Positions 6,423 to 52,718 of a stretch of DNA of 64,000 nucleotides are shown here, piece after piece. Position numbers and translations under genes: made by a program. Below the pieces are notes generated by a model, which was not told where the DNA came from, made no database searches, and worked only from the letters and a program-made list of their open reading frames with translations. The number at the start of each line of letters is the position of its first letter. Position 1 is the first letter of the stretch. Origin of the DNA: an uncultured archaeon (GTDB taxonomy: Archaea > Thermoproteota > Nitrososphaeria > Nitrososphaerales > Gagatemarchaeaceae); contig CAWFOU010000001.1 in the NCBI GenBank assembly GCA_963817525.1, positions 32,001 to 96,000 of the forward strand, read 5' to 3'.

Positions 6423-6481
6423 TTCCGCTGCGTGTTGTCGAGCCTTGACGGCTCGATTGCGGGTATAGTGGAAGTGTGAAG

Positions 6482-6601
6482 CGGCGTCGGACCGACTCGA
6501 ACGGTCGACCAACTGGTTAACAGCCAGTTGCTTTTGGCGAGCTCCTTATCGGAGTTCTACCATGCCCCCCGGCACTCTCAGTGCCTCTGAGCTACGACGC
6601 C
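6482..6601 (-). tRNA. tRNA-Asn(GTT) with two D-arm introns (15/16: 6565-6586, 22 nt; 22/23: 6533-6556, 24 nt)
   Basis: removing both inserts gives GGCGTCGTAGCTCAG CATGGTAG AGCAACTGGCTGTTAACCAGTTGGTCGACCGTTCGAGTCGGTCCGACGCCG, a canonical cloverleaf; both inserts contain hairpins in BHB-like context. Confidence 0.9.
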
Positions 6602-48794: not shown

Positions 48795-49587
48795 CGAGAG
48801 CCCCGAGTTCGACGACGACGACCAGGAGGCCGTCCCAAGGCCCTACTCGGTCCAGCAGCCCTTGCCTCCCGCGTCTGGCAAGGAGGGCGGGAAGAGGAGG
48901 CTCAAGTTCTACGGCCACGGGATGCCCTACCTCAAGGACCTCGAGGTGAAGGGGCACCTCATCGTGATAGAGGGGCCTGACGCCTCGGGGCGGAGCACCC
49001 ACACCCAGAGGATACAGGCCAAGCTCGAGGCCGACGGGCACGCCGTCCTGGGGACGGGACTGAAGCGCTCCGAGCTCATCAGCGAGGGGATCATCGAGGC
49101 GAAGGGCAACCTCGGGGTGGGGAAGCGCACCCTGTCGCTCTTCTACGCCGCGGACTTTGCAGACCAGCTCGAGAACAAGATAATCCCAGCGCTCGAGGCC
49201 GGGTACGTCGTGCTGGCTGACCGCTACATCTACACCCTCATAGCTAGGAACAACGTGAGGGGGATCGAGCGGCGGTGGTCGAGGAGCCTCTTCGGTTTCA
49301 CCCTCGTCCCCGACCTCATCTTCTACCTCGACGTGAGGCCTGAGGAGCTCGTCCACCGCGTGTTCCAGAAGAACTCCATCCTGGACTACTACGAGTCGGG
49401 GATGGACATCGGGCTCTCCGACGACATGTACAAATCCTTCCTGATCTATCAGGGCAAGATGGCGAAGGAGTTCGAGAAGATGAAGAAGCTCTTCGGGCTC
49501 CAGTTCGTCGACGGGAACCGCGCCATCGACAAGGTCGACTCTGACCTCCAGGCGCGCATAGACGAGTTCCTGAACCGGCCGAGATGA
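48787..49587 (+). CDS. thymidylate-kinase-like protein, probable second PPK3 subunit (P-loop K to R)
   Basis: EGPDASGRST, ADRY, YYESGMD. Confidence 0.8.
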   Translation: MASESPEFDDDDQEAVPRPYSVQQPLPPASGKEGGKRRLKFYGHGMPYLKDLEVKGHLIVIEGPDASGRSTHTQRIQAKLEADGHAVLGTGLKRSELISEGIIEAKGNLGVGKRTLSLFYAADFADQLENKIIPALEAGYVVLADRYIYTLIARNNVRGIERRWSRSLFGFTLVPDLIFYLDVRPEELVHRVFQKNSILDYYESGMDIGLSDDMYKSFLIYQGKMAKEFEKMKKLFGLQFVDGNRAIDKVDSDLQARIDEFLNRPR

Positions 49588-50399
49588 ACCCCACGCACAT
49601 CGCTTCGCAGCAGCTTGCCAAGGCCTTCAACCGAAACATCGCCACGGTCGACGCGCGCCTTGAGGAGTTCCTGAAGGCAGGGGACTCGCCAACCACCGCC
49701 TCCCTGAGGAAGGCCATCGCAAGGCTCAGGACGACCTATTCCGTACTTCCAAAGAGCGAGAGGCAGGAGGCGCAGACCGTGGGATACCTCTCGGCCGCCA
49801 AGAAGCTGTCCAAGGCGGTCGGTAGGGTGAGGGACATCGACACGATAGCGGCCTGGACGATGCAGCTCTCCGAAGGCAAGGACCAAAAGTCCTTCATCGC
49901 CGACCTGGGCAGGCTCAGGGGCATGGCGCTCCGGACTGCGATCGAGAGGGGCAGGAAGCTCCGGAAGAAAAGGTCGCCCTTCCTAGACCTCCGCGAGCTC
50001 GACGGGCACGGCGATGGGAGGCGCGTGGCGAAGGTCGAGAGGCGGCTCTCCAGGAGGGTCGACAAGGAGTTCGAGGAGTTTCTTTCGTCCCAGGAGGTGG
50101 AGGTCATGCACTCGTTGAGGAAGGACGCAAAGCGCCTCAGGCACCTGCTCGAGCTCACTGAGAGGGGGGAGGCCACGCCCCTGCTCGTGAGGCTCAGGTC
50201 GATCCAAGATGACCTTGGGGCGATACGCGACCACGACCTGGTGATCGACTACCTCCGCAGCAGGGTCAGGCTTACGAGCACGCGCTCCCTGATTCGGGAG
50301 GAGATAGCGAAGAGGCACGCTAGGCTCGAAGACTTTGTCACCAAGAACAGAGGGCAGGGGCACCTCGTCCCCCTCCCCGCAAAGCAGAGGTCTAGTTAG
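49584..50399 (+). CDS. CHAD-domain polyphosphate-binding protein
   Basis: GRVRDID, HSLRKDAKRLRH, QDDLGAIRDHD. Confidence 0.88.
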   Translation: MNPTHIASQQLAKAFNRNIATVDARLEEFLKAGDSPTTASLRKAIARLRTTYSVLPKSERQEAQTVGYLSAAKKLSKAVGRVRDIDTIAAWTMQLSEGKDQKSFIADLGRLRGMALRTAIERGRKLRKKRSPFLDLRELDGHGDGRRVAKVERRLSRRVDKEFEEFLSSQEVEVMHSLRKDAKRLRHLLELTERGEATPLLVRLRSIQDDLGAIRDHDLVIDYLRSRVRLTSTRSLIREEIAKRHARLEDFVTKNRGQGHLVPLPAKQRSS

Positions 50400-50452
50400 C
50401 CCGAATCGCCTGACTATCCTTTTTAACATTGCAAGGGGCGGCAAGTCGCAAC

Positions 50453-50470
50453 AGCCCGGTGGTGAAGCAC
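50453..50470 (+). repeat. intron-less, internally deleted copy of the tRNA-Gln 5' end
   Basis: AGCCCGGTGGTG-AAGCAC versus mature AGCCCGGTGGTG[TAGTGGTC]AAGCAT; preceded by TTTTTAAC (50420-50427) like the functional copy. Confidence 0.6.
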
Positions 50471-50508
50471 TGCCATGGGCCTCTAAATACTGACCCGTCT
50501 TATCCAGC

Positions 50509-51285
50509 GTGGAAAGGTCTAACCTTGAGGGCGCATTCTCTCGAGTCGTTCGAATCGCCAAGATCAAACCTCGAGGTAAAGGGTTCGGTGTCAAAGGGTC
50601 TGCGCATACCGTGCTGTGGTCGAGATACGACGACTTCAGGCTTGGCATTCTCATCGGTATGACATATGGTGACGGTAATCTCATCAAGAGAAGCGCTGGA
50701 ATGAGAACTGGAAGATGGCGGGTGGAGTTCTGCGAGGGTGACCTCTCACTAGTAAGAAAGTATGCTACTCTCACCAGACGACTGTTCAATCTCCAACCGA
50801 GGATAAGGAATCGTGAAACCTGGTTTGAGATGTATTACAGTAGCAGAATCGCATACGAGTTCCTTACTTTCGTAGGGGAGCATCCTAACGGGAAAAAAGC
50901 AGGGCACCTGAGGATACCCGAAGTAGCGAGATTGTACCCGGAAACCCTTAGAGGGTTTCTGTGTGGTTTGTTTTCAGTCGAGGGGTATGTAAAGGGAGGG
51001 AGATATCTCAGGTTAACTGTGGAAATGCTCGAGCGGCGGCTTTTATGGTCGGTCGCGGATGAGCTGAGGAAGCTCGGCTTCCAACCACACTCGTATGCAT
51101 ACATGAAAGACGGGAAGAGAATGTTCGGAGTCTACTTGTATGGCTTTGAAGATTGCGGCAGATTCTTGGACAAGGTGGGCCTGTTAGGGAAGAGGAGAAT
51201 AAAGTTGAGCAGGTTTTTAACCACGACACTGCAGCCGAGGTTAGCTCGGAAGCAGCCCGGTGGAGGATTGGTCCGCCGAATGTAG
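50509..51285 (+). CDS. free-standing two-motif LAGLIDADG endonuclease
   Basis: GILIGMTYGDG and FLCGLFSVEG motifs; lower GC; no intein splice motifs; 3' end overlaps tRNA-Gln; start uncertain. Confidence 0.85.
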   Translation: MERSNLEGAFSRVVRIAKIKPRGKGFGVKGSAHTVLWSRYDDFRLGILIGMTYGDGNLIKRSAGMRTGRWRVEFCEGDLSLVRKYATLTRRLFNLQPRIRNRETWFEMYYSSRIAYEFLTFVGEHPNGKKAGHLRIPEVARLYPETLRGFLCGLFSVEGYVKGGRYLRLTVEMLERRLLWSVADELRKLGFQPHSYAYMKDGKRMFGVYLYGFEDCGRFLDKVGLLGKRRIKLSRFLTTTLQPRLARKQPGGGLVRRM

Positions 51286-51369
51286 TGGTCAAGCATGCTG
51301 GCCTTTGGAAGAGGCGGAAACGTCTCGAGAGGACAGCCGGCGACCCAGGTTCGAATCCTGGCCGGGCTA
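51254..51369 (+). tRNA. tRNA-Gln(TTG) with introns at 10/11 (51264-51280, 17 nt) and 37/38 (51309-51334, 26 nt)
   Basis: spliced sequence AGCCCGGTGG TGTAGTGGTCAAGCATGCTGGCCTTTGG AGCCGGCGACCCAGGTTCGAATCCTGGCCGGGCTA; first intron has helix CGGT/GCCG, 3-nt bulges and GGA/TCC stem. Confidence 0.92.
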
Positions 51370-51488
51370 CCTATCTCAATGGAATCCTTTGCACCCAACT
51401 GGCCCTTGAAGCCAATGACCCAGGTTAGAATGCTGGATGGGCTACAGGTTTATGTACTAGCGGGAAAGTAAATGGGATGGGAATTCTG

Positions 51489-51728
51489 ATGGGCGAGGCA
51501 GTCATAGACGAGCGAGGAAGGATAGTGATTCCGAACGAGATAAGGTCAGAACTCAAACTGAGACCCGAGCAGAAACTCAGGATATCCAGGAAAGGGAAGG
51601 ATCTGCTGCTTTCGCCGGAGGTAAGTGCGGACGAGTTCATTTCAGAGCTGAGAGGCTGCGTGCACGGCTCGAAGATCAAGCCCGCCGACCTCAAGAACAT
51701 CTGGGGTGTCGGCCATGCTCACCATTGA
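51489..51728 (+). CDS. vapB: AbrB/MazE-type antitoxin
   Basis: IDERGRIVIPNEIRSEL. Confidence 0.85.
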   Translation: MGEAVIDERGRIVIPNEIRSELKLRPEQKLRISRKGKDLLLSPEVSADEFISELRGCVHGSKIKPADLKNIWGVGHAHH

Positions 51729-52128
51729 CACGAACATCTGGGCCTACTACTTGGACAGTGACTGTTCGGAGCATCGATCGGTCGTCGGACCGGTGGAGAA
51801 GGCACTCAGGTCAGAGCAGATAGCGATAAACACAATAATCGTGATGGAATTGGCCCACTTTCTCGTCAAGAGCCTTGGAGCTCCGATAGGCGGAGAGAAG
51901 TTGGACGAGTTCCTTCGATTCCCGCTGGTCATCACGGACTTTGATTACCGGCACGCCCTCGGCGCAATAGAGATGCTGAAGAAGTACTCGCACTTGGGCA
52001 TCGGGGGCAGGGACGCAACGCTCTTGGCCATGATGGACGGCGCCGGCGAAAAGAGGATAATGACTCACGACGAACCGCTGAAGAAGGTCGACTGGATCGA
52101 ATCTATCGACCCAGTCAAACTGGCCTGA
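51715..52128 (+). CDS. vapC: PIN-domain toxin
   Basis: IDTNIW, E, RDATL, THD. Confidence 0.88.
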   Translation: MLTIDTNIWAYYLDSDCSEHRSVVGPVEKALRSEQIAINTIIVMELAHFLVKSLGAPIGGEKLDEFLRFPLVITDFDYRHALGAIEMLKKYSHLGIGGRDATLLAMMDGAGEKRIMTHDEPLKKVDWIESIDPVKLA

Positions 52129-52284
52129 GACGGCGCCAAATTCCCGCCTGAAAACCCCTAAACAGGTGCGGCCCTGGACGGGCTATCTCCTCATTTTTGT
52201 GCCCTGTTGCGTCAACGGAGTCGAATACTTCTGTGTTGATTATCTTGCTCGGCAAGCAGATGCTTGGCGAAGACCCTGGCCTGA

Positions 52285-52718
52285 CTATTTAGCGGGACTA
52301 CCGCGTAGCACGCGACCGACTGGCCTACCGTAAAGATAGCCAATCACCATTGCAAGAGCCAGAAACCTTGGTAGGTTGATTATCGCACCGACCAAATTGA
52401 AGACAGAGAGATTGTTGAGATTGACAAGAGTTGAAAAGGCTTCGATGATCAGTAGGGCAGCAAAGCTGAGAATCACCGACTTCACAATCGAATTCTTAGA
52501 TGGGATCCTGTCATAGGCGCGAACTAAGGAATAGCTGACGAAGCATCCTATGACCAACCCACCGACCAAAGGCGACCTTGTTGGCCGTTGCAGTTGCATC
52601 TCCGGAGACAATGAACGTTGAGCGAAAGTATGACGCAAGAGCAAATGTCCCAATGAAGACCAGATAGAAGAAGCCAGCCATTCTTGCGGCTAGCATCCCT
52701 TGCGATTTTAAGGGGCAT
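52285..52718 (-). pseudogene. chimeric membrane-protein remnants (DUF4386-like N-terminus out of frame with another fragment)
   Basis: ARMAGFFYLVFI...IVSGDATATANK, then a frame change into hydrophobic GGLVIG...LPRFLAL. Confidence 0.5.

Follow-up and report, generated by a model that had tools for sequence, protein, structure and literature searches.

A LAGLIDADG endonuclease gene with a spare promoter, a spare exon 1 and a tiny intron in archaeal tRNA-Gln(UUG): a likely mobile homing cassette in soil Nitrososphaeria

The tRNA-Gln(UUG) gene analyzed here lies in a stretch of 64,000 nucleotides (nt) from an uncultured archaeon, hereafter the window (positions 32,001-96,000, forward strand, of contig CAWFOU010000001.1 in assembly GCA_963817525.1; the genome is labelled G000). 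In comparison with the alleles of related genomes, this gene carries an 818-nt insertion that holds a LAGLIDADG homing endonuclease gene, a second tRNA promoter box, a second copy of the first exon, and a 17-nt mini-intron of the bulge-helix-bulge (BHB) type, with the first 12 nt of the tRNA left upstream as an orphan. We consider it likely that this insertion is a mobile homing-endonuclease cassette that occupies tRNA-Gln(UUG) in one genus of soil Nitrososphaeria. A mobile cassette had already been suggested in a first-pass annotation of the window, and the comparison of alleles in relatives supports that interpretation. The locus sits on a 1.17-Mb contig of a 2.8-Mb genome.

Layout of the locus and allele states in relatives

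The features of the locus, in window coordinates, are the following.

49584-50399, + strand: CHAD-domain gene (Pfam E 1.8e-14)
50420-50427, + strand: original tRNA-Gln promoter box TTTTTAAC, 25 nt 5' of the orphan 12-mer
50453-50464, + strand: AGCCCGGTGGTG, orphan duplicate of positions 1-12 of tRNA-Gln and former 5' end, upstream of the insertion
50465-51282, + strand: inserted cassette, 818 nt, delimited against intron-less alleles (locus L001 against L040 of G012 and L048 of G006)
50482-50489, + strand: TCTAAATA, putative promoter box for the endonuclease gene, some 20 nt 5' of its GTG start
50509-51285, + strand: LAGLIDADG homing endonuclease gene, 258 amino acids (aa), GTG start (Pfam LAGLIDADG_3 E 7.4e-8)
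51214-51221, + strand: cassette-borne tRNA promoter box TTTTTAAC, inside the codons for SRFLT of the endonuclease gene
51243-51253, + strand: leader AGCTCGGAAGC, which partly repeats the 5' strand of the acceptor stem and abuts tRNA position 1
51254-51263, + strand: functional exon 1, tRNA-Gln(UUG) positions 1-10 (ARAGORN after intron removal; invariant in 17 alleles)
51264-51280, + strand: 17-nt BHB mini-intron at tRNA position 10/11 (GGA bulge, helix CGGU/GCCG, AAU bulge, inner stem GGA/UCC)
51281-51308, + strand: exon 2, positions 11-37, starting TGTAGTGGTCAAGCAT, with the anticodon UUG at 51305-51307
51309-51334, + strand: 26-nt intron at the canonical position beside the anticodon (ARAGORN)
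51335-51369, + strand: exon 3, positions 38-73 (ARAGORN)

The relatives were sampled by a protein search over 61 related genomes and by locating tRNA-Gln 3' ends in 97 genomes of the archaeal family. Every tRNA-Gln site in the genus (23 genomes) was retrieved, and the UUG allele was recovered from 18 of the 23 genomes; a sample of 20 tRNA-Gln loci represented 12 genomes of other genera. Thirteen further loci with the endonuclease open reading frame (ORF) came from a scan of metagenomes; ten of them extend to the tRNA and 11 upstream. The 18 UUG alleles of the genus fall into six with the full cassette (G000, G022, G019, G020, G007, and G013), three with the intron and without the ORF (G005, G009, and G010), and nine that are intron-less at 10/11. 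In the intron-less G012 and G006 alleles, the CCTTTTTAACATTGG promoter runs straight into an intact AGCCCGGTGGTG followed by TAG. The same box and spacer that precede the orphan in the window also precede these intact genes, and the CCTTTTTAACATTGGAATG promoter of G012 and G006 stands before the orphan 12-mer in G000, G022, G019, and G020 alike. The upstream promoter is common to L001, L040, and L048, and G012 also has the canonical intron and the downstream flank in common with G000. This same pairing recurs in a second synteny group, in which G015 is naive and G007 invaded. By this presence/absence polymorphism at an identical site, with the same promoter and flanks, positions 50465-51282 are one insertion after tRNA position 12, the boundary of which is ambiguous by 2 nt because TG is repeated. 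The canonical 26-nt intron is not part of the cassette, because the cassette-free G012 allele has it too. The first-pass annotation had predicted that ORF-less alleles would show a single intron-less 5' end at the upstream position, and G012 and G006 do so for the window, as does G015 for G007.

The five invaded relatives have a common layout, consisting of the 12-mer, the ORF, TTTTTAA in the ORF end, exon 1, an intron of 17-19 nt, and TGTAG. Every ORF locus has the intron, in six of six genomic cases and in all ten metagenome loci that reach the tRNA (which also have the inner box and the leader), so the co-occurrence of intron and ORF that had been anticipated from the window holds in this direction. 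In the other direction it holds in part: four ORF-less alleles have the intron, but all four keep the TTTTTAA box and the leader of the cassette. Three of them (G005, G009, and G010) also keep exon 1 and have neither the 12-mer nor the old promoter. In G009, a 35-aa tail of the ORF is retained (profile i-E 4e-7), aligning closely with the cassette end of G020, and in G005 and G010 only a few bases are kept before the box. The fourth, G035, belongs to another genus and has the intron with the cassette promoter and leader, no ORF sequence being kept and the neighboring gene ending about 35 nt before TTTTTAAC. This was the only case among nine UUG alleles of other genera, and none of 11 CUG genes had the 10/11 intron. 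A search for orphan-like 12-mers upstream of the ORF-less alleles gave only chance matches inside neighboring genes. Because G005, G009, G010, and G035 all keep the box and the leader, they are best read as derivatives that lost the ORF. Among the alleles examined, the 10/11 intron was never seen without the cassette promoter and leader; the inner TTTTTAA box, as read from the printed sequences, is present in 17/17 intron alleles including the four ORF-less ones, and the inner exon 1 never varies in these 17. The relatives therefore present differing stages, in which the ORF is intact, broken, or deleted.

The inner copy of the tRNA is, on comparative grounds, the working gene. The tRNA-Gln set of G000 consists of this UUG gene and one CUG gene only; the inner tRNA-Gln(UUG) must work because the only other tRNA-Gln is CUG, and the ORF-less alleles keep the inner parts while having neither the orphan nor the old promoter. 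The orphan 12-mer is exact (12/12) in G000, G019, G007, and G013 and in the loci L127 and L134, and elsewhere shows one to four changes at scattered positions. Within the 11 metagenome loci that extend upstream, it is exact in two, has one change in five (two of these being the same sequence), two changes in two (again the same sequence) and three changes in one, and is decayed in one, which equals the G022 sequence.

Within the window itself, TTTTTAAC occurs in only two copies against 0.23 expected, a number reached in 1 of 100 shuffles, and AGCCCGGTGG is likewise found twice (50453-50462 and 51254-51263; 0.26 expected). The G+C content is 0.47-0.55 over approximately 50300-52700 and 0.61-0.67 upstream. 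The ORF runs through exon 1 and the mini-intron, its stop being the D-arm TAG at 51283-51285. The elements that the first-pass annotation had listed (two promoter-like boxes, a duplicated 5' end, a lower-GC ORF with two motifs, and a BHB intron) are thus all in the sequence, and its description of the read-through to the D-arm TAG is accurate. It had also taken the AAGCA after the orphan for an exon junction with 8 nt missing. Those letters are present, but the tRNA relic comprises positions 1-12 only and no longer copy. AAGCA follows the 12-mer in none of the five other genomic relatives, and it is not a D-arm remnant, because what follows the 12-mer is different in each genome. The box GCGTCTAAATA is kept in G022, G019, and most metagenome loci and is missing from G013 and G020. 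The AGC.CGG portion of the leader is kept in the metagenome loci and in each of the eight alleles that were aligned, among them ORF-less ones.

No tRNA was found in the window by ARAGORN with default settings or by Rfam at gathering thresholds. After in silico removal of 51264-51280, ARAGORN gave a 75-nt tRNA-Gln(UUG) with a 26-nt intron beside the anticodon. The intron option of the same program returned a tRNA-Glu(CUC) at 50453-51371 with an 838-nt intron, which was rejected as an artefact of the repeated 5' end. This false tRNA-Glu(CUC) joins the orphan 12-mer to the real 3' half, and annotation pipelines may mis-call such loci.

The mini-intron and the endonuclease

The mini-intron was parsed in each allele by a rule that pairs the exon bases C5-U8 to the four intron bases preceding its last two, since the MAFFT alignment of the 17 alleles (A3) puts length variants out of register. 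Parsed in this way, all 17 intron alleles exhibit two 3-nt bulges around a 4-bp helix with symmetric splice sites: a GGA bulge at the 5' splice site, a central helix with 4/4 base pairs, and an A(A/U/C)U bulge at the 3' splice site. The strand opposite CGGU reads GCCG, GUCG, AUCG, or GCUG, the inner stem has 2-4 bp (e.g., GGA/UCC, AAGG/CCUU, GGAC/GUCC, GGAG/UUCC, and AGGG/CCCU), and the length is 17-19 nt. Across nine genomic alleles, pairing holds in 98.5% of 66 cells, and four pairs have substitutions on both sides. None of 500 shuffles reached the percentage paired or the covariation score, one of 500 reached the number of pairs changed on both sides, and sliding the partners dropped the pairing to 18-52%. 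On this comparative evidence, the mini-intron is a real BHB of exact 3-4-3 geometry with compensatory changes. The fold of the whole precursor (z score -2.0) is uninformative about the leader. G000 encodes two splicing-endonuclease paralogues, at loci L053 and L054, which would fit the heteromeric type. As the relevant part of one report states, a heteromeric splicing endonuclease can cut non-canonical introns (PMC5829648), and removal of the mini-intron by such an enzyme appears plausible.

These observations bear on a second reading, in which the 12-mer would serve as exon 1 and splicing would remove some 820 nt, with the ORF among them, as a classical ORF-containing BHB intron. The ARAGORN model in which an 838-nt intron separates the upstream copy from the 3' half agrees with it, archaeal rRNA introns with LAGLIDADG ORFs are well known, and two of their enzymes, I-DmoI and I-Tsp061I, are among the fold matches described below. 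Yet that model describes a tRNA-Glu(CUC), and one whose D-arm is defective, rather than the tRNA-Gln, and the bases after the 12-mer vary by genome and, by inspection, cannot pair with the strand before GCCG. Four alleles that have neither the 12-mer nor the old promoter keep the inner promoter, exon 1, and the mini-intron; moreover, the substitutions seen in the 12-mer would disrupt the acceptor stem, and no such change occurs in the inner exon 1 of any of the 17 alleles. The 17-19-nt intron does not hold the ORF, which lies upstream of exon 1, and Rfam at gathering thresholds gave no match anywhere in the window, hence no group I intron core. We regard a classical intron as very improbable.

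The endonuclease has the two motifs of a monomeric two-domain LAGLIDADG enzyme, GMTYGDGNL (with D55) and GLFSVEGYV (with E158), and both acidic residues are invariant in an alignment of 14 sequences (A1). The AlphaFold model (predicted local distance difference test score 80.9, predicted template modeling score 0.81) exhibits the alpha-beta-beta-alpha-beta-beta-alpha double-domain fold. Its top Foldseek matches are intein endonucleases, I-Tsp061I, and I-DmoI (probability 1.00, E 5e-11 to 3e-8), and by profile comparison with the PDB the closest solved structures are those of PI-PfuI (E 2.9e-6) and I-DmoI (E 0.007). The ratio of nonsynonymous to synonymous substitution rates (dN/dS) between G000 and G022 is 0.066 at a dS of 2.9, more distant pairs being saturated, and by this measure the ORF is under strong purifying selection. 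Judging from the invariant D55/E158, the predicted fold, and the low dN/dS, the enzyme looks active. Of the six genomic ORFs, those of G000, G022, and G007 are intact, that of G020 is interrupted only at masked NN, and two are broken, by a frameshift in G019 and an internal TGA in G013.

The ORF is single-copy in the G000 genome. Strong protein matches among the 61 genomes searched were confined to the five same-genus genomes, with identities to G000 of 71% (G022), 69% (G019), 60% (G020), 53% (G007), and 47% (G013), and databases contain only 30 close homologues (at least 55% identity), none of them named. In alignment A1, nine C-termini contain QPGG, as encoded by exon 1, and in a tenth exon 1 is translated in a different frame; these endings imply that the endonuclease family is tRNA-Gln-linked throughout. 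The tRNA linkage that the mobile interpretation called for is thus found in all close homologues, and distant ones (25-28% identity) lie in tRNA-Leu in the same layout.

Mobility, mechanism, and alternative readings

The mechanism that we infer would start with the LAGLIDADG enzyme cutting an intron-less tRNA-Gln(UUG) in the D-arm, near 12/13 and around positions 11-14. Repair would copy the 818-nt cassette from an invaded allele, the left homology arm being the old promoter with positions 1-12 and the right arm being position 13 onward. The cassette as a whole would not be spliced out; the replacement promoter, located in the ORF 3' end, and exon 1 would be used instead, and in this proposal the insert would be harmless because the cassette brings its own promoter and a new exon 1. 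The host splicing endonuclease would remove the 17-nt mini-intron. The new allele would be immune to further cleavage because the mini-intron splits the rebuilt target at 10/11 and the orphan lacks the right half. The old promoter and the first 12 nt would remain as the orphan, and later decay or deletion of the ORF would leave behind a tRNA gene that has no ORF but has acquired a promoter and a non-canonical intron.

Several patterns are signs of non-vertical descent, short of proof of transfer. In a tree of aEF-2 covering 18 of the 23 genomes, cassette or remnant alleles occur in three clades (G000/G020/G009, G007/G010, and G013), and each of these is interleaved with intron-less alleles (G008 and G018; G002; and G003, G016, G004, and G015, respectively). 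In G007 and in the metagenome locus L132, the orphan stands behind a box of the CTTATCT type, which is the kind used by the naive G015, G016, G004, and G003 and is decayed in G013, while the TTTTTAA type is native to G012, G006, and G008; judged from these boxes, the promoter type of the cassette is foreign to the host in G007 and L132. The orphan is exact or near-exact, and directly behind it alignment between loci breaks down, a combination expected if each invasion keeps the left end of the recipient and copies the rest. In G020, the orphan has T7, as in the intact G006 allele (with a compensating A66), and the working tRNA has G7:C66; this single base is at most suggestive of an origin in the recipient. 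The CHAD neighbor was not used for rates, its divergence being erratic: identity to G000 is 95% over 81 aa in G018, 81% in G022, 73% in G012, 61% in G019, and 46% in G009, the aEF-2 of which is 95% identical. This erratic divergence may reflect exchange of flanking DNA near a homing site or non-orthology.

The distances between endonucleases are 1.02 for G000-G020, 1.46 for G000-G007, and 1.81 for G000-G013, whereas the corresponding aEF-2 distances, summed from the tree, are 0.033, 0.32, and 0.37. The distances imply that the endonucleases of G000 and G020 parted long before their hosts did. The resulting ratio of about 31 for G000-G020, compared with 4.5 (G000-G007) and 4.9 (G000-G013), is nevertheless derived from one marker that is partial in G020, with endonuclease distances near saturation and a pseudogene as the G013 copy, and this is the first of several points that weigh against a mobile cassette. 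The aEF-2 protein is absent or weakly matched in G022, G019, G012, G006, and G005, which hence stand outside the tree. The endonuclease tree is compatible with the host clades, with G000, G022, G019, and G020 on one side and G007 and G013 on the other. For old insertions, the conservation of the orphan 12-mer exceeds what neutral decay predicts; the 12-mer may serve a purpose of its own, such as the transcript start of the endonuclease or a binding half-site, which the model does not require. As for the mini-intron, the RNA of exon 1 and the intron alone folds best as a plain 7-bp hairpin of the same strands (z score -0.2), and the inner stem is only 2 bp in 4 of the 17 alleles. Finally, all genomes used are metagenome bins, and G000 is rated at 8.75% contamination.

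One alternative is an ancient fixed insertion that entered once in the ancestor of the genus and has since been inherited vertically and lost repeatedly, with no homing now and maybe another role. The grouping of the endonucleases into G000/G022/G019/G020 and G007/G013 matches the hosts, purifying selection could reflect a host function, and the junction after position 12 is identical in all loci, as a single founding event would leave it. Vertical inheritance over a long time, with repeated losses, keeps some plausibility because the endonuclease tree does not contradict the host clades. It would, however, need the precise loss of 818 nt in nine intron-less alleles that stand behind the original promoter, and it would have to accommodate an orphan preserved 12/12 in lineages with ORFs saturated at synonymous sites, as well as an endonuclease only about 60% identical between G000 and G020 where aEF-2 is 96.8% identical. 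The two broken ORFs (G019 and G013), the four alleles that lost the ORF without losing the tRNA, and the entry of a TTTTTAA promoter into hosts with another native type speak against it as well. We judge an ancient fixed insertion to be unlikely, and favor the mobile homing cassette.

An element of the integrase type, derived from a plasmid or virus, could also leave a scar that duplicates part of a tRNA, as has been proposed for a tRNA-Thr gene of Caldiarchaeum. Partial tRNA duplications flanking insertions are described as typical of such elements in the portion of that work dealing with them (PMC3293823), and orphan tRNA-Gln 3' ends are present in several of these genomes, together with a degenerate 3' half at 51399-51444 of the window. 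But the LAGLIDADG gene fills the 818-nt insert and is the sole ORF there with a family match, and the insert holds no integrase gene; the repeat is at the 5' end and measures only 10-12 nt. In addition, the same small unit stands at the same nucleotide in six genomes and 13 metagenome loci. An integrase scar has, in our estimation, very little to recommend it as the origin of the cassette.

An assembly artefact joining two alleles might be suspected in a metagenome bin with 8.75% estimated contamination. The locus lies on a contig of 1.17 Mb, and both junctions are bridged without differences by short-read unitigs from four soil DNA runs overall: from the 12-mer to the ORF by record 3 of X1, record 8 of X2, and record 16 of X3, and from the ORF to the tRNA by record 4 of X1 and record 26 of X4. 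The bridging is not independent support, because the four soil runs may include the source sample; the layout is, however, also found in five other genomes and 13 metagenome contigs, and an artefact is hardly credible. When the reads of these four DNA runs were examined as contigs, no joints came up and several parts of the stretch lacked coverage, so that they carry no information on population polymorphism.

Related arrangements, known systems, and significance

The same cassette layout recurs, by manual parse of the sequences, in a second tRNA, namely tRNA-Leu(UAA). In G001 (L008:1215-2292) and G003 (L085:1216-2282), an orphan 5' part ends in the anticodon loop and is followed by a LAGLIDADG_3 ORF (E 5.8e-13 and 6.7e-9, respectively) that is 25-28% identical to the window protein. 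The TCGAAACGCTTTT promoter then comes a second time, ahead of a complete tRNA whose intron lies at the break; a further short intron lies near 26/27. The tRNA-Leu(UAA) of G000 itself (contig C8 near 109586) has no insert. A deletion scan of tRNA-Leu was dropped since ARAGORN proved too permissive, "recognizing" 1094 of 1470 deletion variants.

A different, distantly related LAGLIDADG gene occupies the same gap between CHAD and tRNA-Gln in G018 (L042:292-1263), which is the nearest relative by CHAD and has one of the nine intron-less alleles, with a tRNA-Gln body resembling that of the other clade. This gene encodes 323 aa with an N-terminal helix-turn-helix (HTH) and a LAGLIDADG_3 match (E 5.7e-7), is 30% identical over 57 aa to the window endonuclease, and ends on the D-arm TAG of an intron-less tRNA-Gln(UUG) with no orphan 12-mer. 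Its family is multi-copy in 62 of the 97 genomes of the archaeal family, and a tRNA was nearby in only one of five G000 copies inspected.

A broader reading, which we advance tentatively, holds that such cassettes, in which the tiny BHB intron would have no role but to confer immunity, could be a general engine of archaeal intron gain, and that many ORF-less tRNA introns, canonical ones included, and micro-introns of protein genes could be their scars. The alleles of G005, G009, G010, and G035, as possible scars caught in the act, suggest this, as do the tRNA-Leu case at a canonical position, the other LAGLIDADG gene, found at the same spot before tRNA-Gln in G018, and the multi-copy family to which the latter belongs.

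Other irregularities were noted around tRNA genes in the window and its relatives. The tRNA-Gln(CUG) of G028 (L105) is preceded by a repeat similar to the leader, AGCCCGGA, and appears to hold two other short inserts, after the D-arm and after the anticodon loop. The degenerate intron-less tRNA-Gln 3' half at 51399-51444 of the window (anticodon stem to discriminator) begins 30 nt past the real gene, at the place where the window stops sharing its flank with G019 and G012; a MazE/PIN toxin-antitoxin pair (51477-52128) comes next, within the low-G+C stretch. G019 has an orphan tRNA-Gln 3' end about 245 nt downstream of its tRNA-Gln, and seven loci of genus g1 (L014, L020, L023, L031, L035, L036, and L046) have tRNA-Gln 3' ends without a preceding tRNA body. 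Such orphan 3' ends are probably old attachment-site scars. On the minus strand of the window, a tRNA-Asn(GUU) at 6481-6601 was seen with the intron option alone, and its reported 45-nt insert is oddly placed.

Among known systems, the closest mechanism, by analogy, would be the collaborative homing of phages, reported for F-CphI with the psbA intron of cyanophages and said to operate in T4 mobE with the I-TevIII intron. As would be the case here, a free-standing endonuclease lies beside its target gene, the recognition site is split by an intron that has no ORF and shields the carrier allele, and nuclease and intron are inherited together. The present case differs in that a 17-nt protein-spliced BHB intron in an archaeal tRNA stands in place of an ORF-less group I intron, and in that a replacement promoter and exon 1 come with the unit and the old 5' end stays behind as an orphan. 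A second point of reference is provided by archaeal rRNA BHB introns, which encode LAGLIDADG enzymes (I-DmoI, I-Tsp061I, and relatives). The monomeric two-domain LAGLIDADG fold (Foldseek E about 1e-9 to 1e-8), a stable-RNA gene as the target, and BHB splicing are features in common, whereas here the ORF lies outside the intron, which is far too small for it, and duplication of promoter and exon, rather than splicing, would make the insert harmless.

The tRNA-Thr(GGU) of Caldiarchaeum subterraneum appears to be the closest case in print, and possibly a look-alike that went unrecognized. As described in the sections devoted to that locus (PMC3293823), a 5' fragment (positions 1-27) is followed by an insertion of 1,868 bp, in which an 813-bp ORF immediately precedes the tRNA on the same strand, the tRNA has gained an extra non-canonical intron at the break (24/25), and an allele intron-less at that site exists in the same population. 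In that account, Sugahara et al. (2012) took the ORF for a putative recombinase on the strength of a support vector machine classifier and proposed site-specific integration of the pNOB8 type. The gene order is the same as here, and its authors, in those sections, likewise conclude that a mobile element delivered the intron (PMC3293823); the two cases differ in that the Caldiarchaeum ORF is read as a recombinase acting by integration, whereas here we have a LAGLIDADG protein and would invoke double-strand-break repair. A review that treats archaeal tRNA intron transposition states, where it takes up the topic, that the mechanism is unknown (PMC4090602). The gain of similar introns at non-canonical tRNA positions at the DNA level is a likeness to the present case, and the difference is that no nuclease gene or exon duplication is described in those paragraphs (PMC4090602). 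In the literature outside subscription journals, we found no description of a free-standing LAGLIDADG gene combined with a duplicated tRNA exon and a BHB mini-intron. The design is new as a variant, the known kinds being the free-standing endonuclease with a protective intron and the archaeal BHB intron.

Standard tRNA finders miss or mis-call genes of this sort, and the enzymes are candidates for new specificities toward tRNA-gene sequences. Beside self-splicing introns and inteins, a spare promoter and first exon would be a third way for a homing endonuclease to spare its host gene. Seen together, this locus and those of its relatives outline a route at the DNA level, complete and open to testing, to non-canonical archaeal tRNA introns, and the untouched, invaded, decaying, and enzyme-lost stages seen in these relatives suggest how archaeal tRNA genes may gain introns at unusual positions.

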